A DNA stretch of 62,610 nucleotides, filler included, from Collodictyon triciliatum (taxonomy: Eukaryota): the NCBI GenBank assembly GCA_043381765.1. It is 12 parts of 12 records of this genome, joined end to end, with 100 filler letters (N's around TTAATTAATTAA, not from the genome) between each part and the next. Parts side by side here need not be neighbours in the genome. Positions count along the whole stretch, not along the records: positions 37,684 to 42,957 come from JBHJMP010005334.1; 11 more parts are not named here. One strand, given 5' to 3'. A model generated the notes under the pieces. That model did no database searches and was not told the origin of the DNA. It saw only the letters and a list, made by a program, of their open reading frames with translations. This document shows, piece after piece, positions 2,415 to 49,976 of the stretch (its first letter is position 1; each line of letters starts with the position of its first letter). Position numbers and translations under genes: made by a program.

Positions 2415-3895
2415 CTACTCGTAAACAACGGGGTTTGTCAGGTGCCCAATGCCCTCTACAGAAACAGAGACAGAATCTCCGTGCTGCAGAAAGACGGGAG
2501 GTTCGCGCGTGTAGCCTACGCCCGACGGAGTTCCGGTCAGAACGACCGTGCCTTTGGCCAGTGTTGTCCCCTATGAGAAATCAAAACTTTGAATAGACGG
2601 GTTCTTGTGTCACAAACGAAAAAGACAAAGAAAGAATCGGGGCATTGGCCCTAAAAGGCGAGTTTTGTCCATATGACGGAGTGGCTACAAGGATTTCCTC
2701 CCCACTATCACTCTATCATATTTTAAAATGAATTGTCTGATAGAAAGAGCAATCGGTTCCGAAGGTAAATATAGACAACATCGCGAATCTAGCATTACGG
2801 TGAGGATATATCGCACGACATATCCACCATACACACCTGACTCAGATAGCAGATAAGCTCAGCCACGCCAAATATCATATCAGACGTGCTAGAGTCCTGC
2901 ATCAGCGTCCCGTTCAGATGGGTCCTTATGGCAAGCTCGTTCGGATTCACACGAGAGTCGGACAGGAGAAGGGCAGGACCGAGCGGACTTGTAAGAAAAA
3001 TATATGTGAATACAGACAGACTTAAATAAATACTCTGTGAATGCATGAGCCAAAGCCTTATAATGATATAGGAGGTAAACCAGAAAGAGTCAAAGCTCTT
3101 TGCTCGAGACCACTGGCCACCTCCACGCTTTCCTTGCCAACGCCGCGCAGATACATCGTTTCCCACTGTGTAACCCAAAACCGACAGCAGCGCGTCCTCA
3201 GGCGACTGCGCATTCTTTACGTCTCGGCCAAGAACAAACGCAAGCTCGGTCTCATAGTCGACTTCGAGCGGGCTTTGTGCAACACGTGGGACATAAATAG
3301 GATGGAAGGGATGCGTGACAGAGCGCGGGTTTTTCATCAGCTGAATGGGAGTTTGTGGGATGGCGTTCTTGGTCTCATGCGCGTGTTTGCGATAGTTGAG
3401 TCCGATGCAGATGACAGCTGGTGGCGGGAAGAGAGGGACGGGCGCACGCAGCTGTGCAGCTTGGATGCTTTCTGTCGCAGTCTCACCAAGCGCGTTTTCC
3501 ACCGTCTGCTGCGTTGGGAAGACCACATCAGCCGCGAGTCTCTTCACAGGGATCGACTCGGATGCACTTGTGCCTGGAGAAAGATATAGCATAAACATCT
3601 GATTGGCGGGTGCTTGTCAGGGGCTGCGTTGGGGAAGTGCACTTTTTTCTCTCTTTTGTTTGACAGGTTGGACTATTGGGCGTTTTGCCCCAAAGGAAGC
3701 GCGTCTGGGAAGTTGGTGATCGAAGCACAAACCAGCGCCGAGTGAGGCAGAGTCGCAGAGAACAGCCCAGCAAGCCGAGACCAGCGAGTCATGCGGCTGG
3801 AAGCGAACCAAGCGTGTTTGACAGACGCCGGACAAAGAGAGGTGGCGAGTAATTACTCCGTGGGGCTTGAGAGTGCGGCAATAAAGAGAAAACAT
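2415..3895 (-). CDS. Fumarylacetoacetate hydrolase-family protein (FAHD2-like), probably with a mitochondrial presequence, 4 exons
   Basis: Motifs [65 protein letters not shown]; Arg/Ser/Leu-rich N-terminus; TAG at 2415-2417. Confidence 0.92.
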
Positions 3896-16258: not shown

Positions 16259-17472
16259 GTGGACCAAACGGATGGGATCGACAGTTATGGAAGTACACAA
16301 TCATCACTTCAAGTGAGATTAAATTAATTGTTGATTCTTGTGACCAATGCCACTGATTCTCGCGCCAGATTGATTCGTTTTATTTTATTTCTTTCTAATG
16401 GTTTTCTCCATCAAAGATATATTACACCCATAAAAACTGGAATCATTTGCGCCACTTAGCTTTTTTTTGTATTGAGATATTTTTCTTATTGAAATTTTTC
16501 ATTTGCTTTTAGAGGATGCGATTACTATCAAGTTTACTTATCTTAGTCCCGATGGCGAAGAGTCTTACCCTGGATCCGTTAATGCTGGAGCCAACTATAC
16601 TTTAAAAAGTGATGGAACCCTTGTGATGGAATTCGTTGCCACTAGTGATGTATTGTACTTGATAACGCTAATCTTCCAAAGATCTGTGAAAGAAAAATCG
16701 TGAAAGAAACATCCATATTTATCTATTTAAGGCAGCCGGATGCTTTATATAGTCTGTCCACTATCTCCCATCATAAGAAATAACCTTCTCTTATGTATTG
16801 CATTTTAGGATGACACGGTGATTAACATGACCAATCACGTTTATTGGAATCTGACAGGGTCTCCCAAGGGTACCAGTGTCATGGACCATGTTTTACACAT
16901 GTCCTGCAAAGACTATCTCCCTGTAGATGAAACCAAAATCCCCACCGGGCATCTCCTGGCAGTGAAAGAGACTCCCATGGACTTTCACACTGCCCCACGC
17001 CCCATCGGTGAGGATACATATATGAATAATACAAAGCAAGTTGGTACACGCCTCCCTCACACCAACCTGACCATAATATGAATCAACCAAAAATGTGTTT
17101 TCCATAGGAAAGGAAGTTGAGCCAAGCGAAGGTGGATTCGACCATTGTTTTGTCATCGATTCATCATCGACTCAAGTTGGTCACGTATTGACCCTGGAGA
17201 CTGAGGGAAGCATGCCAATACCCCATGCTGCATCTGTTGTTGAGCCTGTTAGCGGTCGCACTATGAATGTGTATACAACACAACCTGGAATTCAAATATA
17301 CACGGCCAATCACTTTGATGCTGATAATACGGTTTATTTTCAAAAACACTCTGGTGTTTGCTTTGAAACTCAGCATTTTCCGGACTCTGTCCACCATCCC
17401 CACTTCCCAACTGTTTTACTGAAAAAGGGAGATTCGTTTCGACAGATAACTGTCCATACTTTTTCTTGCTGA
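16259..17472 (+). CDS. galM: Aldose 1-epimerase (galactose mutarotase), 5'-partial
   Basis: GGPNGWDRQLW, SPDGEESYPG, NMTNHVYWNL, GGFDHCFV, TTQPGIQIYTAN, GVCFETQHFPDS; TGA ends at 17472. Confidence 0.93.
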
Positions 17473-34534: not shown

Positions 34535-36224
34535 ATGGACACGGAGCACATAGCCAGCGTCGAGCCCGTCACGCTGCACCTGACAGCAAACCATGCGTAA
34601 GCGAGCCCTCTCCCGCCATAGACTCTTCTCCCGCCATAGACCCTTCTCGCTCACCGGCGCTGCCCCGCACAGAATCGCCGTCCGCGTGCTTCTGAAGCGC
34701 ACGCACTGCCCGCTGGGCGATCCCAACCAGGTTCTCACGGACCCGGCGGGCGGCCTCAGCCTGGTCGCCTTCTCCACCGAGAGCTGCCCCTTCGAGCTGG
34801 TCCTGGCCATCGACTCGGACCGCCGCATCCGCAAGGACATTGTGGCCAGCATCTCCCTCCACGATGCGCAGCACGGACGTGGGCACGACGACGGACACGG
34901 TGATGACCATGAGGATGGCCATGGGCATGAGCACGAGGCAGACGCGCCCCTGGCTGGAGGGCTGCGCGAGGCGGACGGAGCAGCCGTGGTTTGTCTTTCC
35001 TGCCCATCGCCCCACTTCCCTGCCCATCGCCCCACTGACCCGCCCATCGCCCCGCAGACCCACGTCCGCTTTGCCGGCCAGAAGCGCCGCCTGCAGTCCC
35101 CAAAGTTTGGGCTGGGCCGCACCAGCTTTCGCGCCGCAGACTCTGCGCCCCACGCCATGCGCCTGCAGATTGCCCTCGGTGTGGACGGCAACGCCCCGCA
35201 GGCCGTCCTGTTCACCCCGGCCTTCTTTGTCCTCTCCAAGATCCCACCCGACCTCCTCGCAAAGGACTACATCCTCCGCCACCTCCGCACACGCGCAGCC
35301 TCCCTCCGCTTCCACGTCGACACTGCGGCCAAGCGCTATCACCCCTCCCAGAAGAGGGCCACCGTCTTCTTCCATCTCGCCTCCTCCTATCTCCGCTTCC
35401 CATTCGCGCACATGCACACGGCTGGTGCGCCCAATCAGCTACCGGCCTCCCTGCTGGGCGATGTCCCGCGCTCATCGTCGCCGGGCAGCAAAAGGCACAG
35501 ACCGGCCCACGCGCACACTCGCACCCCACCGCTGACTCTCGATGTCGAAGCCGATGACCCTGCGGACATCCCACTGCATGCGCATTCCAACCAGCCGGTC
35601 GATAGCTGCGGTTCCGAGTCGATGCACGACACTAATGCGTCACTCGCACCCCGTCGCATGGTCGACGTACCCAAGCCAAAGCATGCAGACGACATGTTCA
35701 TTTATCAACACGCCCACAGCAACACAGGGACAGAGAACGAGGCAGAGGCAGAGGCAGATACAGATACTGAGGCAGAGACAGAGACCGACACGGCCAGTGA
35801 CAACTTTGAAGAAATCATACACAAACATACATGCAAGTTGCATATGGTAACACCAAACAGTGTGGCTTCCTCCTTGGAGGCCATCTCCCCCAACTCCAGT
35901 AGCCAGGCAGCACATTTGCTTCTCAACCTTGCCTCCACAAACGCTACCTCGTCCTGTCTGCTGCCATCCAGTTCGTCCCACTATGTCCCCCAGACGGCAT
36001 TCAAAAGTGGCTTGCCTGTTCTTGCACTCATTGCCTCGGCCTCTCGGGTATATCCGCAACTCGAACTCCACGCACACCAAGGCTACTTCAACAGCCTCGA
36101 TTCGGATTTTTCGTCTCCAACTACCCCATTCTCTTTGCCCCCAATCATATCCTTTTCCTCAGAGAGCCCTTCTGTAGACAGTTTACATTCTCTGCAAGAG
36201 CACGTCCTACGGCATATGGTCTAG
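34535..36224 (+). CDS. Uncharacterised GC-rich protein with a His/Asp-rich loop and a possible Ig-fold DNA-binding domain
   Basis: ATG 34535 plus intron 34597-34672 splices in phase into the 543-aa ORF; probable in-frame intron 34989-35057; low-complexity Ser/Pro/Glu tail. Confidence 0.7.
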
Positions 36225-37685
36225 AATTCTGATGGACACATCTTCTCAGAGGAGAAAACGTACCTGACTCCAGCCTCTCGTTTATGAAGCACTCAATGTG
36301 CAGCTTCTTGTCCTGTACACATGCCTTTCGTTCTTTGGGGGTTTCTCTGTTTCCTTTCCCTTCTTTCGATGTTCATTGTCCCTTCAAAGTCACACCCCAG
36401 TTGATATCACGCCCACATCTTGTCGCTCCCTAACTCCTTCTCTACCTCAGTCTGATGGGGGTTTCAGCCGCAGTGTTGTTCTCTCATTTCATTTGATGTC
36501 TTTTCATTTGCACCACCCTGCACGGATTGGTGAAGATAGTCTTTGCGTCTGCTCCGGTGTAATACAAAGTCATTAAACCACACCACAAACTAAATGACAG
36601 GGCCGACTTGGTCACGATTTGCATGGGTTCTGTGTGCCTGTTTGTCTCTCTTTTTTCTCCTGGAGTATGCCGTGTACATCACAGAATGGAGGGTTGCTCG
36701 TTGCTTCTTTTTCAATCCCACAGCTTTTTATGCGCCTAGAAAACTATATTTATTCGATGAAGGTTTCCGCTGCCGCCAACCCTGCTTCTATGGTGGCTCT
36801 GTGGATAAGGGGTTCCCTTGCCCCACAGGCGTTTGGTTTTGATGGTTGCACATTTTCTCGTTTTTCTTTTCTCTTTTCGCTTTGGGCATAGCGGAAGCAG
36901 GGGAATTATAATTAACAACGGGAAGGGCTTTGGATGAATTGGTTCGTCAGCACTTCTACAATCCACTCATACAGGCTGCCTGACATCCTCTACGGTGGAC
37001 AGCTCGGCTCTGGTGCTGGCTGTTTGTGGGGGTGCGGGTGATTCGTTGGCTGGCGCGGTGGCGGCTTTCTTGCCAAATTTCAGCCCGCAAGCATTGCACA
37101 GCCTGAAAATATTGGAGATGTTGTGACCAGAGCTCTATGCGTAGCATTATCACCGATGGCAATTGCAAAAAACAGTGACATGCACAGAAGGTGCTTTTGT
37201 CTCGGCACGTAAGTCGGATGAAATACCGCGGGGCACTTACGAAGCCTTCCCGTCCGGGCCCCTTCTCCATGCCGGAGACGATGTAGCACCGCAGTGGAGG
37301 CATGCTTGGTCGGTCTGTGCACGACCGACAAGTTTTTTTTTTAATAAATAGATGACTTTTTCCCCAAAAATATCATTACTTGACGTATAGAAAAAAAATG
37401 AGAGAGAAGAGAGAAAGAAGAGAGAAAGAAGAGAGAAGGAAGAAGAGAAGGAAGAAGAGAGAAGGAAGAAGAGAGAAAAAAGAGAGAGAAAGAAGAGAGA
37501 AAAAAAAAGAGAGAAAAAAAAAGAGAGAAAAAGAGAGAGAGAGAAAGAAGAGAGAAAAAAAAGAGAAAAAAAAAAAGAGAAAANNNNNNNNNNNNNNNNN
37601 NNNNNNNNNNNNNNNNNNNNNNNNNNNTTAATTAATTAANNNNNNNNNNNNNNNNNNNNNNNNNNNNNNNNNNNNNNNNNNNNGG

Positions 37686-37757
<72 letters not shown>

Positions 37758-37777
37758 GAATTGTCTCCTCTTGAAAC

Positions 37778-38984
37778 CTTTTTGTTGGCTGCAGCAAGTT
37801 GAGCGGCAAGTTGGGCAACTTCGGCCTCTTTATCAGCAATTTTCTTTTGGCTGTCGCGAGCTGAATCATTATCATATGTGAGTGGGAAAACGCAGCCAGA
37901 ATATACTTAACATGATGGCACTTACAAACAGATGCATTTTCGCTCTTCTCACGTGCGACCGATTCCTCCAGAAGTGAAATCTAAAAAGAAAAAGTAAATA
38001 TATAATATGATAAGAGATCTCAGAAATCATGTGCATCAAGACAGAAAAAATGCTTGGAATAGAATGGACTCATTAAATCTACACCTTGGCCCTAAGCTCG
38101 GTGACGTCATTGTCTAAGCGAGTAATCGTGTCGGATTTCTAGAAGAGACACTCATGTTATTGTTGTATACCTTAATTCTCCTTCAATAGCAAAAAGCAGG
38201 ACATAAAGGAATAATATGCGTATATTTCGAGTAAACGAGGTAATGTTAACCTCCTTTTTATCGCGCTGGGCTTCTTGTGTAACCTTCGTTATTTCACTCT
38301 TCAGTCGGGAAATCTCTGCTTGGTCATCGTCGCTCTAAGATAAATTAAACAAGCAAAAAATAATAATGATAATTAAACATATCAAGAAGTGGTGCGGATA
38401 TGGCTAGCTTTTTTTTTTCTTCCACTTCTTCGACTTATTTAACGTTGTGTATTGTATCTCACTTGAAGTTTCAGAAGCCTGTGCTGGTTTTGTAATTCTC
38501 TATATTTTGCACTCCACGAGTCCTCCAGTTCGCTGGCCTTGTCCTATTAAATTCAATGTCCAAAAGAGAGAGGAAAATTTGTTACATTTGTTTGTAGAGT
38601 AAAAGCTACGAAAGACATGTTATGCTAATATTTAGAGGAGAAATCATGCCTTGTCTGATTCAAACTGGTATAGTAACTCTTGAATCTAGTAGAAACCGAT
38701 GAAGTACATTTTACAAGGACAAACGATTGAAATACTGACTTGCTATTGACATGAATCCAAGCCAAGAAATTTTAAATGATGGGTTTAGATACTACGTACA
38801 CGTGCTTCCAATTGCTCCCGACCAAGCTGCGCATCCTTTTCAGCATCTGCCAGCTTCCCTTTGAAAGTCAGCTCTGCGTTCACGTACCGACTTTGCAGGC
38901 TATCCACCTGGGAATAGAAATCATGACGACAATGTTTATTCATAACATGCAACAACAAAAAAAATTTGCTTCGGCGGCTAAATC

Positions 38985-39081
<97 letters not shown>

Positions 39082-42000
39082 GACTCTTCATCAAGTAAAA
39101 TTTATGACCTCTTTCTTCAGCTGCTGCTGTGTTTTTTGGAGTGCTGTGTTCTCGTTGTGAGATTGTTGAAGCTGCTGCGTTAGCTCGTGGTTCTTCTTTT
39201 CCAGCTCAGCAATCTGCATCAAATTGAATATATTGGATGAGTAGACCGCATTTGGCATATTCTTGATTCAAAATCCTGAGTGAGACGAGAGAGAGAGCTA
39301 CTTTCTTTTCCATTGAGGACTTCATCGATGCCATCTCATCCTTTTCTCTGGACAACTATTGCAAATCAATTTCTTGAACATCATACACGAAGTCACATAT
39401 AATATGACACTTATACTTTGAAGTAACGTATAGCTTATTAATGAATACAAACTTCGTTGTCTTTGGCCTTGAGTACGCGCTGGTGCTCTGCTTCGAGAAG
39501 GACCTTGGCGGCAGAGACTTTTTTCTCTATCTGCTCCTGATTTTTTCTTTCTTCTTCCTCACGCTATGATATATTATTGAGGGGAAAAATGCAGTTGCTA
39601 ATCCGCCAAAAAGAAAGCTTAAATACGAATGAAAACATGCTTTATTCTAGAAATGTATATAGAAAAATATGAAAGTAAAGTGCATACTAATATCTTATCT
39701 TGAGCTTCTTTTCTGCGTTTTTCTTCTTCGAGATTCATGAGCATGCGCTCCATATCTTTGCGCTTCTGCTCTGCGCTGAGAAGCCTTCTTTCTGCTCTTT
39801 TCTTGGCCAAAATCGGTCCCGAATACTTTCGTACCTTATATCCTCGCCAATTTTTCTGCAAAATACCGATGCTTACCATTTTTTTTCTGATTCTTTGGAT
39901 TCTTGGAAGCAAGAAGCGACCGATACGGATTAGGATTTTCGAAATAAGGTGAATGGCTTTGAAGTGGCGAATGAGTGCTATCTTGTGCGCAACTATAAAA
40001 CGAATGGGGAGTGTTTTTCTTAGCACAAAACACAATAATCACATCAGAGATACATTAATGGGGCAATGTGTTCGAATCAAATGCCTGATATGAAGCAAAG
40101 GTAGTCGTGTGGGAATAGCATAATACGTTTGATTGTGGAGATTGCAGTCCAGATAGCAAGGCGGAAGTTTTTCCGCCTTACCCATTTGACGATTTTCCCG
40201 ACAACGTTAGCCGAATGTGCAACACCCGATGATTTCAGTTCATCCAAGAATGCAAGCTGTTGCAACGGCACCATTGTTTAGCATTACCCACAGAAAGACA
40301 AAGTTAAACATACATATCGGATAATCACGCACATATATAGGAATGAGAGAAAGTATCTTAACATTAAATGCATTTTGTATCAGAGGCCCACCTTCCCAGA
40401 ACGGAAAAAGACTTTCGAGATTCCCATAGCGAAATCCTTTCTGTCGAATTCCAGTGTCATCAGGAGAGCTTCGCAAAAGTCTTTTGTCTTTAGTTTAAGC
40501 AGGACTTCAGGCAACATAGACTTGAACCTAAAAGAAAATAGGGTCGTAAGTTATCTAGACACGAGTTCGTTGGAAAAACACACCTTCTCGTTCCTCGGAT
40601 ATATCTTACTATTTAACATGAAATTAAGAATGAAGCATTAAACGGTCGGGTTGCAGGGGGTAAAAAAAAAAACTACCTTTTATGGAGGTCGTCATAAGGA
40701 GAGCGTGTTGGATACCCTGCATGCATAAGTTGCAATGCGGCCATCATTCCGTTGCAGCGCAGTTGATTGAGAATGATATCCCCCTCAAAAACGCCCTTTG
40801 ATTATGGGAAGAAAAAACCTCAAAATTTGAATTATAATACTTTCATAATGCATATACTTGCTACTAAAACGTTAGTCATTCTACTTGAATACTAACCGGT
40901 TTTTGTTTGGTCGTTGGCTTGATACAGCGGATAAAGTGAGACTCTGTCTTTCTCAAATCCTCCATTAGTTGAGTTAGAGATTTCTGTGTACAAAAAGTAT
41001 ATGATGAGCTTTTTTCTTTCTTTTCTGCAGAATTATAATGATAGAAATCAAAATTTAATCATTTCATGATAAAAAAAAAAAAGAACAACTTCAAAATAAG
41101 GTTTTCGTATGTTGAAATTACCACAAAATCAGAGGCGACACTGTTAAATCGGTTTCCGGATGCTGGATGGTTGATTGATGTGGTTAGTTATTTAAAGTTT
41201 TATTATGCGAGATGTAATCGTATGCATATGCGTATAATAGCTATAAATTACTCTGTGAACCATCAGACACCGGGAAAAGAGCCTTGAGTGTATCGTTTGT
41301 TGTCGAAAAGAGAAGAGACTGGTGGTCTGGATGAACCATATTGGTGTTCTTTTCTAGAAATCCAGCAGTTGAATAGCATACCTAGACGACAGTTGAATGT
41401 ACCATTAGGAACAGCTTCACTGGAAAGGTTACGAAGGACCATAATGTTAAACAGTTTGTCTTTCTTAAAAGCAAAAGTGCAGTTTATTGAGGTTGGGAAT
41501 GGAAAACTTACATCGCCAGCGTAGTGTCTCACTACAAAAGCCTCAGACGTAGTCAGTTTACGAGGAGGTTTGCCTAGTTTCGAGTGGTTTCCGTGCGCCT
41601 TGTAGACTATGGAATTACCGTGTTCATAATGAGACAAGAAGAAACACGCAGTAATCACTCTGCTAAAATTTCGATGTTTATACAAAGACTAACAAACTTT
41701 TTTCAGTAAACGCAGAGTCCTTGGAGTTCGGCAACTTCATTTCCTCATCCAGTATCGATAGAATACCAGCCGGTGATTTTTTCTGATGTATATGCAGATT
41801 TTTTTTTTAAAAAAAAAGGAAACAGAGAACCCAGATGAAGCAAAAGGAGGATTTTTTTTTTATGTTTTGTTTCGAGAACCTCATCAATCAAACTAATGCA
41901 ATCTTGATTGTCTTGGTATTCAATTTCTGGTGCTTTGATGCCCTCACGCTTGTATAAATCAAGTTCCTATGAAGAACAAACGATTAATAACGAGGAATAA

Positions 42001-42826
42001 TGACTAGCCACAGCTTATGGTACCTATTAACATGGAGGGAATCTGTAAAAGAAACATTAAGTGGAAGAAGACCTGTATAAATATGCATGAATTGAAATAT
42101 TGTTGGAGAGTTTCGTTGGTGTAGTTAATGCACAGCTGCTCAAATGAGTTGACCTGAAGAGCAGATATGCATAAATAATCGAAGGCCAAATGATATTATT
42201 GAATTAAAGTCTGCAATATGATAGATTACATCGAAGCTCTCGAATCCGAAAATATCCAAAATCCCAATGTGCGAAACTGGCTCTTCAGTCCTGTTCGATT
42301 AATCATATATATATATATATCACCATTCTATTAACACAGGTAAATGTTCAAATACATGATTCAGGCTTTTATGTTCAAGTAACACACGATTTGTTTGACT
42401 TTGTTGGTGATGGGTGTTGAGTGAACTTACGATAAGAGACTTTTATTCACAACGGATACAACCCAGTCAAATAAATTACTGTAAATTGTCTTTGCGAGGA
42501 CGTCACACAAATCACGAGCCTAACATGTGATAATTGCAAAAAATTAAATAAAGAATAAGCAGAATGGCTCTTGATATGCGAAGGTGTTTGAAAATTGCAG
42601 AAGCATAACAATTGGAACATAAATTACTTGTGTGGCAGTCAAGGGACGATCGAAAGTCTGTTGCTTCGTCACAATCTTTCGGTGAGTGAGCACAAATTCC
42701 TGCGGAACCGATGATGAGAGTTGTATGAATAAATGATGCCTGCACAAATATAAATGTCGTATGAAGCTTTCAAGCATACCAATTTTTCTTCACTCAAGCC
42801 CAAAAGAGTCGCAGCCCGTTTAAGTT
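37778..42826 (-). CDS. Myosin heavy chain, myosin VI-like: C-terminal motor half, converter, insert-2-like helix, IQ, coiled coil; partial at both ends
   Basis: [99 protein letters not shown]. Confidence 0.95.
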
Positions 42827-43232
42827 CTAGATGTTTATAAGTTTAAGAAAGATAGAAAGATAGAAAGATAGAAAGATAGAAAGATAGAAAGATAGAAAGA
42901 TAGAAAGATAGAAAGATAGAAAGATAGAAAGATAGAAAGATAGAAAGATAGAAAGATNNNNNNNNNNNNNNNNNNNNNNNNNNNNNNNNNNNNNNNNNNN
43001 NTTAATTAATTAANNNNNNNNNNNNNNNNNNNNNNNNNNNNNNNNNNNNNNNNNNNNATGTATGTATGTATGTATGTATGTATGTATGTATGTATGTATG
43101 TATGTATGTATGTATGTATGTATGTATGTATGTATGTATGTATGTATGTATGTATGTATGTATGTGGTGCATGCTTGAATTTGTAGTAAACTAATCTGTT
43201 GATATAAATTTCACCAACATTATACCTCTCAG

Positions 43233-47306
<4,074 letters not shown>

Positions 47307-48521: not shown

Positions 48522-49607
48522 TTTGACATCACCCGAACTCCAGAGGTCGAGAAGCTCCCCGCAGTCTCAAAGTCATGAATCACAGATTCAGCCTGCTCTG
48601 CCGTCTCAAACTCTACAAAACCAAATCCTTTCGGAATTCTTGTGACAGGAAACTTTGGGACGCTCGTATATAGTATGTTTCCATAGTGCCCAAACAAGAG
48701 TCGGAGTGATTCGTGACTTATTTGATCGGGAAGTCGCTCCTTATCACCCAACATAAAAGAGTAAATACACAGGGAAAAATGGCTTCAGCTGAGACTTTTT
48801 TTTAAAAAAAAACTTTAAAACTATTAAAAAAAAAAACCTGCTCACATATGTTTAAATTAATAGAAAACAAACAACGTATATAGTCCTTTCATCTGCATGC
48901 GTGTCTTTTGGGATTGGATCTGTCCGACGAATCCTTTTCTTGTTCGGAGAGACTTCAAGCTTATCGGAAGTTTGTGCAGCTGACACTATATCCTCCAGAA
49001 GATTGGTAAGGACTTTCACCTTATTAAACCTGAGAAAAATGTTTACCGGAACCCCTATGTCGCATATGTACATATTTAATTAAGAAATCATTAAAGTTTA
49101 CCATTGAATGATGCAATCATATACATATTTATAAAATAAACGATTAACCCGACTATGTGACATGGTATCTAGACGCATATCACATATAAATTGGCATTGA
49201 CATAAAACAAAAAAAAAACCAAGGAATACAAAACAAAACAAAACAAAACAAAACTAAATACAAAGCAATACAAAAAAAAAGCGAAGCAAACCAAAATAAA
49301 ATAAACTCAATAATATTCACGGACAGCCTTTGCCCGATTGATCCTGCTGCACAAGCTTGCCAAGATATCTGTCCTTGCAGAGGTTTGCATTCCCAAAGTA
49401 AAACTCCAATAAGTCACGTATTGCATCCCGTTTACTCTCGGAGGCGATTTGGGAAGCTTGCTCTGCGCCTTGTGTTTTGTCCAACTCCTTTGGCAGGTCA
49501 CTTTTGCATTTGCCTTTGCTTTTGTTTGTCGCCGGAATCACCTCCGCTTTGGCCGAAAACTGTGCTGTTTCGCACGAAGACGAAGACACTGCATTGGACT
49601 CGGCCAT
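48522..49607 (-). CDS. LARP7: La-related protein, LARP7-like (La motif + RRM1), 3'-partial
   Basis: LEFYFGNANLCKDRYL, FNKVKVLT, DERTIYVERLP, LFGHYGNILYTSVPKF, PKGFGFVEFETAEQA. Confidence 0.75.
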
Positions 49608-49976
49608 TTCTGATCGCGCCTGAACAAAAGTGACCTTTTGCAGTGCACTGTTAGAATAAAAAAGAAAAAGAAAACAGAAAAAGAAAAAGAAAAAGAAAAA
49701 GAAAAAAGTGGTTGGGGCGCACCCGAAGACAAGGAGAATCAGTTCATATGATAATACAAAATAGTCTCTTCTAGCTGCCTTTTCTTTATCGGTTTTTCTT
49801 ATTATTATTATTTTATTTTTTTTGTGAGCAGGTTAATACGATTATGAGGAGCGCTTGGAGGAGGTTGTAATTTTATTTTATTTTATTTTTTCTGCCAAAA
49901 CCCAAATGTTGCGAATATGTTAAGTACGAGGTAAACATACTCTCCCATAGCCTCGTCACAGGACTTTCATCCTTGT

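Follow-up and report, generated by a model that had tools for sequence, protein, structure and literature searches.

A class VI-related myosin gene from the protist Collodictyon triciliatum carries a homologue of the reverse-gear insert of animal myosin VI

To our knowledge, myosin VI is the only myosin for which a minus-end direction of movement has been measured. In the animal protein, insert 2, a segment of 53 residues (761-814) that binds structural calmodulin and turns the lever by 120 degrees (PMC2635068; PMC5762158), is the sole determinant of reverse movement (PMC2635068). Another insert, of 22 residues and referred to here as insert 1, lies near switch I (PMC2635068; PMC5762158). Here we describe a myosin heavy-chain gene fragment from Collodictyon triciliatum (assembly GCA_043381765.1), which lies in a 62,610-base stretch of DNA that we call the window. 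The segment that follows its converter is a true homologue of insert 2. Our overall reading, to which we give a probability of roughly 65%, is of a motor of the VI/VI-like clade that keeps this homologue and that, by homology, would have a reversed lever.

Segments resembling insert 2 have been described in other protist myosins. In PfMyoJ and PfMyoK, the converter ends in a sequence resembling insert 2, that of PfMyoJ being 28% identical to insert 2 of MYO6, and AlphaFold-3 models from 2026 align the converter and neck of both with those of minus-end motors, with no motility assay of either reported in the available text (PMC13448217). Apicomplexan myosins of the PfMyoJ/PfMyoK type were placed in class XXIII by Sebe-Pedros et al. 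in 2014, and RUN-tailed apusozoan and haptophyte forms (Thecamonas, Emiliania) were assigned to class VI in the same work (PMC3942036). The two large classifications of myosins disagree on the age of the myosin VI class, that of Kollmar and Muhlhausen (2017) limiting class 6 to Holozoa (PMC5583752). The word Collodictyon is absent from the available main texts of both classifications (PMC3942036; PMC5583752), in which Diphylleia, CRuMs, and Rigifila were not searched for. In the literature searched, no paper describes such myosins from CRuMs; the one matching paper, on Collodictyon, mentions class II myosin only.

The gene fragment occupies 37778..42826 on the minus strand and, in a three-frame reading of that strand, comprises 24 exons and 766 codons without a stop. 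An AG acceptor precedes and a GT donor follows each of the 24 exons, and intron length ranges from 65 to 256 bases. The fragment begins in the middle of the motor domain, at the equivalent of residue 343 of its orthologue P0001 from Diphylleia rotans, and proceeds from the motor with switch II through the SH region and the converter to a long helical tail that reaches the contig end. Because the contig ends, the fragment lacks about 340 N-terminal residues, among them the P-loop and switch I, as well as the 3' end; the features of the myosin motor (PF00063) that fall within the fragment are switch II and the SH region. The features, all on the minus strand apart from the contig itself, are as follows.

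37684..42957, no strand: contig carrying the myosin gene (JBHJMP010005334.1), with a linker N44-TTAATTAATTAA-N44 on either side
42826-42780, 42699-42628, 42519-42431, and 42290-42230, minus strand: motor-domain exons 1 to 4 of 11, the last with switch II (DIFGFE); GT-AG boundaries
42153-42073, 41966-41880, 41782-41698, and 41606-41512, minus strand: motor-domain exons 5 to 8 of 11; GT-AG boundaries
41381-41252, 41162-41122, and 40983-40897, minus strand: motor-domain exons 9 to 11 of 11, the last with the region of the SH helices; GT-AG boundaries
40677..40795, minus strand: exon in which the converter begins; its junctions are spanned by contigs of the RNA runs X1, X2, and X3
40392..40527, minus strand: exon with the remainder of the converter, to the strand ending in VFFRSGK; gapless, via P0001, to myosin VI residues of about 715-762
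40236..40256, minus strand: last converter helix (LAFLDEL), with which the insert exon opens; counterpart of helix 737-745 in the model of paralogue P0006
40206..40235, minus strand: Gly/Ser-rich linker of 10 residues, the counterpart of the proximal, helix-breaking part of insert 2; a 7-residue break in the model
40127..40205, minus strand: amphipathic helix with the pattern W...F...W, the counterpart of the distal, calmodulin-binding part of insert 2, assigned by alignment, profile, and conservation
39979..39992, minus strand: end of the insert-2-like segment, completing I-K-L-x-x-K-I; junction 40127/39992 bridged by X1 and X2
39865..39978, minus strand: basic and hydrophobic helix of about 38 residues, without an acidic residue, between the insert and the IQ motif
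39823..39864, minus strand: IQ motif with the core L-Q-x3-R-G-x3-R
39688..39813, minus strand: start of a Glu/Arg/Lys-rich helix that runs on into exon 39563-39453
39563-39453 (charged helix), 39355-39302, 39213-39109, 38907-38800, and 38543-38463, minus strand: tail exons 1 to 5 of 9, those after the first with heptad-like spacing
38334-38251, 38138-38085, 37980-37926, and 37860-37778, minus strand: tail exons 6 to 9 of 9, with heptad-like spacing to the contig end

This region is part of an expressed unconventional myosin gene of a protist related to Diphylleia (CRuMs). In an RNA index search, the words sampled from 39400-41000 were recovered in runs at fractions of 0.39, 0.20, 0.18, and 0.13, and all five introns in that interval are bridged by RNA-type contigs at the exact coordinates of the gene model (39563/39688, 39992/40127, 40256/40392, 40527/40677, and 40795/40897, reading CT..AC on the plus strand). 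Four runs from three studies contribute to these junctions: X1 bridges all five, X2 and X3 two each, and X4 one; two of the three studies are freshwater metatranscriptomes. The spliced contigs match the gene with 0 to 3 mismatches, their loose ends at 39453 and 40984 run into the adjoining exons, and junction 40983/41122 is also seen. One contig of run X1 reaches about 1.3 kb farther in the upstream direction. The RNA label of runs X1 and X2 is an automated guess, and since introns are lacking in the contigs from these runs, the contigs can hardly be genomic DNA. An in-frame 21-base GT..AG interval within exon 39992-39688 was considered as a further intron and rejected, as it is retained in the RNA contigs.

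When the 43-residue insert exon was used as the query in a word-indexed search of 5.8 billion proteins, a single protein was returned (one of one candidate), P0001 of Diphylleia rotans, at 74% identity. P0001 is a complete open reading frame (ORF) of 1425 residues from the EukProt transcriptome of that species; it matches the PF00063 motor at 787 bits and no other Pfam domain. The spliced fragment and P0001 are identical at 474 of 787 positions (60%), with 81% identity over 381 columns of the motor, and their alignment is free of gaps from the converter to the IQ motif, including the four exons around the segment. This orthologue and the paralogue P0006 serve as stand-ins for the spliced gene in several of the analyses that follow. 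Paralogues with VI-like motors number at least six in D. rotans (P0001, P0004, P0006, P0007, P0009, and P0010) and at least two in Rigifila ramosa (P0005 and P0022), and the insert-2-like motif is present in every one of those listed. One of the D. rotans proteins, P0007, clusters with RUN-tailed forms and not with the main CRuMs branch.

Among myosins of solved structure, animal and other holozoan MYO6 (2BKH, 2BKI, and 2VAS) is the best match to the orthologue, and its lead is much wider for the converter and lever than for the whole protein. Full-length P0001 scores 610 bits against myosin VI, compared with 592 for myosin XI, 573 for myosin Va, and 569 for Dictyostelium myosin II; when only the 268 residues that begin with the converter are compared, myosin VI scores 87.5-90 bits and the next class, myosin Va, 60.7. 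About 10 of these bits come from the distal insert, as myosin VI constructs that stop before it score 77.5. P0001 and myosin VI align for 130 residues without a gap, through insert 2 and as far as I-K-L-x-x-K, with Trp 787 and Trp 798 of 2bki_A opposite tryptophans in the gene product and Trp 793 opposite a phenylalanine. The initial annotation had set a spliced post-converter peptide beside an animal myosin VI sequence and had claimed that both Trp positions and the IKLxxKI ending line up. The animal sequence used there agrees with the solved chains, and the resemblance exceeds chance. The peptide itself is present where it had been placed, on the minus strand and spread over four exons (40795-40677, 40527-40392, 40256-40127, and 39992-39688), with one correction: the residue after GYPTRS is Pro, not Leu.

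The specificity of this match was assessed with a profile of insert 2, constructed from 46 post-converter residues of 19 class VI proteins (those with the cargo domain or the lever model in Pfam, or named myosin VI by their source). The segment encoded by the gene scores 31.7 bits and that of P0001 28.5 bits, and the best of 1000 shuffles of the segment reaches 10.0 bits. Levers of the outgroups (classes II, IV, V/XI, and VIII, MyTH4 myosins, and unclassified IQ-only forms) score between -2.0 and 8.7 bits, the post-converter segments of V/XI alone spanning -0.9 to 8.7. None of the 22 scored outgroup rows exceeds 10 bits (4 further outgroup rows were unscored), as opposed to 58 of the 65 rows of the VI and VI-like clade. 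The seven clade rows at or below 10 bits are three labeled "other," one PX-tailed, and three of the basal branch. The gene segment matches an animal insert-2 profile specifically, in favor of the initial annotation, and its gapless identity to insert 2 of a mollusc, an insect, and a tick is 33-35%.

Conservation across the clade follows the same pattern. Across the 65 rows, the last converter helix gives way to a stretch of 6-9 residues in which Gly, Ser, Asp, Pro, and Glu are abundant, and then to a further helix. Of the three aromatic positions in this helix, the first holds an aromatic residue in 61 of the 65 rows (Trp in 49), the second does so in 48 and is hydrophobic in all 65, and the third does so in 33; the basic triplet is basic in 52-57 rows. 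Conservation of these aromatic and basic positions is only suggestive of calmodulin on insert 2.

Motor phylogenies were calculated from proteins trimmed to the motor and ending at the last converter helix, such that the insert was excluded from the trees. Sequences were drawn from the best 120 of 7997 matches in a word-indexed search with P0001 residues 1-800 and from the best 150 of 7304 matches at an expect value (E) of 1e-30 in a full HMMER search with the paralogue P0006. A first FastTree phylogeny of 184 rows and 665 columns, from which isoform duplicates, incomplete motors, and most of the near-identical plant XI and animal VI rows in P0044-P0122 were left out, already unites all proteins that have the post-converter motif. 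In a quick tree, the VI/VI-like clade receives a Shimodaira-Hasegawa-like approximate likelihood ratio test (SH-aLRT) value of 99. An IQ-TREE analysis of 91 rows and 686 columns under LG+G4, with clades labeled by their Pfam tails, gave the following groups (support as ultrafast bootstrap [UFBoot]/SH-aLRT).

All class VI and VI-like rows: 65 rows, 99/93
Class VI proper, Apusozoa, PH-tailed amoebozoan and holozoan forms, RUN-tailed forms, Cyanophora, and CRuMs: 46 rows, 89/92
Class VI proper with Apusozoa and PH-tailed forms: 24 rows, 100/99
CRuMs branch with the studied gene: 11 rows, 88/98
Studied gene and P0001: 2 rows, 100/100

Branch order within the 46-row clade is unresolved. Forcing the CRuMs branch to join class II, the next lineage to join outside the 65-row clade, produces a log-likelihood difference of 119 and is rejected by the approximately unbiased (AU) test (p-AU 3e-11). 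Hence, the motor belongs to the VI/VI-like clade, the result on which the initial annotation had made its proposal depend, at a position not inside the class VI branch proper. Together with the insert, this placement supports the view that the gene is a new CRuMs member of a known group, the class VI-related myosins that have a homologue of the reverse gear. The tails attached to heads that combine a VI-like motor and the insert vary, with PH, RUN, PX, CH, CAP-Gly, BIR, BTB, and WD40 domains as well as plain coiled coils. In the basal branch of the clade, which has CH and PH tails, the close relatives are named Plasmodiophora, Spongospora, Bigelowiella, and Amorphochlora, which we take to be rhizarians.

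The path of the lever was compared in an AlphaFold model of P0006 (1042 residues; 49% identical to P0001) predicted from an alignment of 44 rows. The model has a mean predicted local distance difference test score (pLDDT) of 82.3, with 86-92 for residues 751-790, and a predicted template modeling score (pTM) of 0.72. Beyond the last converter strand, it has a helix at 737-745, a break of seven residues at 746-752, and one long helix from 753. The top 26 rows of a Foldseek search with the model are all myosin VI. By their VIA-align Z-scores the classes are hardly distinguishable, the best myosin VI chain reaching 48.2 and myosin Vc 46.1, but the aligned ranges do set them apart. In all 11 myosin VI rows, the superposition reaches residues 763-776 of the model, paired with chain residues 788-801 of insert 2, as opposed to none of the 39 rows from other classes passing model residue 757, though several of those chains include levers. 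Thus, in the paralogue the segment is not modeled as an ordinary straight IQ lever, a form that would have counted against the initial annotation; the P0006 helix tracks insert 2 of myosin VI instead. The aligned ranges are those that a reverse-gear geometry would predict, a weak indication drawn from modeling.

The order of elements beyond the insert also resembles that of MYO6, in which an IQ motif and a charged helix follow. Both had been described in the initial annotation and both are present in the gene: the IQ motif matches PF00612 at 18.2 bits (E 0.002), under the Pfam cutoff of 20.3, and in the Glu/Arg/Lys-rich stretch 54-68% of residues are charged, a span of 28 residues containing as many as 11 i,i+4 pairs of opposite charge. 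The long coiled-coil tail that had been proposed is likewise borne out in appearance, as the last 210 or so residues before the contig end have heptad-like hydrophobic spacing and the tail of the orthologue gives a dimer model. Two copies of P0001 residues 900-1130 were modeled as a parallel, in-register dimer with an interface score (ipSAE) of 0.52, the best of three controls scoring 0.00; contact agreement was at least 93% in three runs, and partner pLDDT was at least 87. In a microbial calibration, the pass mark applied here is reached by 21 of 30 homodimers of solved structure and by none of 23 single chains; among eukaryotes, 17 of 29 homodimers reach it, but of the 7 that have no older solved relative only 1 does, so that the pass of this tail may stem from memorization. 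The long coiled coil probably makes the motor a dimer.

Overall, the gene and MYO6 share membership in the VI/VI-like motor clade, a colinear insert 2 with W, F, and W at the three Trp positions of the animal protein, and the I-K-L-x-x-K-I ending. They differ in about 38 additional basic and hydrophobic residues that lie between the insert and the IQ motif in the gene and are absent from animal myosin VI; this helix may be a further light-chain site. The tails also differ, that of the gene being a long coiled coil and that of MYO6 a short coiled coil with a globular end. PfMyoJ and PfMyoK are similar to the gene in being protist myosins with an insert-2-like segment, a likeness that rests on their published description, as the rows of our trees contain no known apicomplexan. 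The RUN-tailed rows (Rhodelphis, Picozoa, and unnamed metagenome proteins) have the same post-converter motif, and most fall in the same 46-row clade, the RUN-tailed Rhodelphis row P0014 joining only at the next node, of 50 rows; unlike these forms, neither the window fragment nor the Diphylleia orthologue has a RUN domain. Myosins V and XI, which are plus-end motors with IQ levers, have the same motor fold and similar overall scores, but their first IQ motif directly follows the converter helix without a Gly/Ser break.

A mechanism that accommodates these features can be proposed. The Gly/Ser-rich linker breaks the helix after the converter, and the amphipathic helix with its conserved aromatic and basic positions comes next. 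By homology with animal myosin VI, calmodulin would hold this insert helix to the converter and redirect the lever by about 120 degrees, and a lever so reversed would drive movement toward the minus end. The basic and hydrophobic helix, a single IQ motif, the charged Glu/Arg/Lys helix, and the long coiled coil lie beyond the insert, in what is predicted to be a dimeric motor. The insert-2 profile score and the lever path of the paralogue model make minus-end movement likely by analogy with the animal protein.

Several results weigh against a reversed lever or against a close tie to myosin VI. P0001 matches neither the MYO6 lever (PF21521) nor the cargo-binding domain (PF16521) at E values up to 0.1; exon 39992-39688 of the window gives only a weak IQ match, and the tail of the gene is truncated by the contig end. 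Insert 1, which in class VI spans about 22-26 residues, is not in P0001 according to the alignment, the gene's own site lying beyond the contig end. The insert exon alone matches no myosin among solved chains at E values up to 10; with 43 residues it is too short, and therefore the longer stretch of the orthologue and the profile were used. (A match of this exon to a fimbrial protein, at E 0.7, was dismissed as chance.) The P0006 model is weak as independent evidence because it represents a paralogue, because animal myosin VI was in its alignment, and because AlphaFold was trained on these structures; what the prediction shows is likeness to myosin VI and not an independent fold. The 91 rows were picked after the first FastTree phylogeny and the groups for the AU tests were named after the tree, and all trees are LG+G4 or FastTree phylogenies, none being site heterogeneous (posterior mean site frequency [PMSF]). 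The gene lies outside the 24-row amorphean class VI branch, although inside the 46-row clade. The middle of the insert helix fits the partial IQ pattern I-x4-R-x4-R, so that the sequence alone leaves room for an ordinary light-chain site, and the available text of PMC13448217 gives no measured direction for any nonanimal member of the clade. These last two points, and the missing match to the Pfam lever model, speak for a VI-like motor that moves toward the plus end, one in which a straight lever carries a diverged, IQ-like site for a light chain and ancestry is shared with myosin VI without reversal; moreover, the segment aligns with the first IQ motif of V/XI with no difference in length over that block. 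Such a motor would leave unaccounted for a Gly/Ser-rich helix break exactly at the insert 2 turn, a profile score of 31.7 bits against the far lower range of the outgroup levers, and a modeled helix that tracks insert 2 and not the levers of myosins I, II, V, X, and XI, and in animal myosin VI insert 2 alone sets direction (PMC2635068). We consider plus-end movement unlikely.

A different question is whether the gene should be named myosin VI, as it would be if the CRuMs branch were sister to amorphean class VI. Forcing these two branches together costs 7.1 log-likelihood units and is not rejected (p-AU 0.073), both are within the 46-row clade, and the RUN-tailed apusozoan and haptophyte forms are already in class VI in one classification (PMC3942036). 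The free tree, in contrast, does not group them (support of 3/25 at the joining node), the orthologue is without the cargo-binding domain, the MYO6 lever match, and insert 1, and the other classification keeps class 6 within Holozoa (PMC5583752). Among aligned rows, insert 1 occurs only in P0075, P0042, and P0064, from named animals, and in the unnamed P0141; it is absent from Capsaspora MYO6, the cargo-domain-bearing Pigoraptor protein, P0143, Thecamonas, all CRuMs, and the other VI-like rows. Confined to these four rows, insert 1 looks much younger than insert 2. True class VI orthology is doubtful, and we do not file the gene as class VI proper, because its clade position, lever extension, cargo domain, and insert 1 either disagree with that class or are out of reach. 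It is very improbable that the reading frame is meaningless and that the locus is a pseudogene, an assembly artifact, or a contaminant: the contig is short and has microsatellite ends, its junctions with unrelated contigs are artificial, and the gene is incomplete at either end, but the 24 exons are free of stops over 766 codons, spliced RNA contigs from three studies match them almost exactly, and the nearest relative is from the Diphylleia lineage. On balance, a VI/VI-like motor with a homologue of insert 2 and a probable reversed lever remains the preferred reading.

The remainder of the window is a chain of contig pieces of about 5.3 kb, and since these are joined by 11 artificial linkers, gene order across a linker is uninformative about the genome.

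5329, 10712, 16098, 21478, 26859, 32254, 37628, 43002, 48373, 53742, and 59111: linkers of the form N44-TTAATTAATTAA-N44

Both ends of the myosin contig hold microsatellites, as (GA)n and (AAGAT)n-type arrays at 37684-37755 and 42843-42957, and it is probably because of these terminal arrays that the assembly broke there. The intron between exons 39213-39109 and 38907-38800 contains a further microsatellite, a perfect (ATT)n array some 95 bases long (38985-39080). On the next contig, the plus strand at 43203-47060 encodes a multiexon fragment of a P-type cation ATPase, truncated at the contig start, that matches the Cation_ATPase_C and HAD-type hydrolase models; a minus-strand frame at 43006-43305 was rejected as an upstream myosin exon, as it lies on that next contig, where the plus strand encodes the ATPase. 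The contig around 34001-36000 is G+C rich (0.61, versus 0.28-0.47 in the rest of the window) and contains an ORF of 546 codons on the plus strand (34584-36221) without a Pfam match; its opposite strand also carries long open frames. Long exons elsewhere match fumarylacetoacetate hydrolase (2798-3616, minus strand; E 1e-41), aldose 1-epimerase (17077-17469, plus strand; E 5e-18), and, under the cutoff, the start of the La domain (49320-49832, minus strand; E 7e-7).

The gene places a clear homologue of insert 2 on a class VI-related motor in CRuMs, and the spread of the motif across eukaryotes is a more interesting lead than the single gene. Proteins with the motif come from named Amoebozoa, Apusozoa, Filasterea, choanoflagellates, CRuMs, Cyanophora, Rhodelphis, and Picozoa and from the branch whose relatives are named Plasmodiophora and Bigelowiella, a distribution suggesting that the reverse gear is much older than animals. 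A more tentative possibility is that the reverse gear is an ancient eukaryotic module that predates the split of CRuMs, Amorphea, glaucophytes, Rhodelphis, Picozoa, and Rhizaria and was kept and multiplied in Diphylleia-like protists; the gene would then encode a dimeric, long-levered minus-end transporter, and backward walking would be widespread and ancestral. If it is true that these motors move backwards, minus-end transport on actin would be old and common, and the CRuMs proteins, whose coiled-coil tails are simple, would lend themselves well to tests. Should these motors not move toward the minus end, the insert alone would be insufficient for reversal, and the accepted view of myosin directionality would have to be revised.

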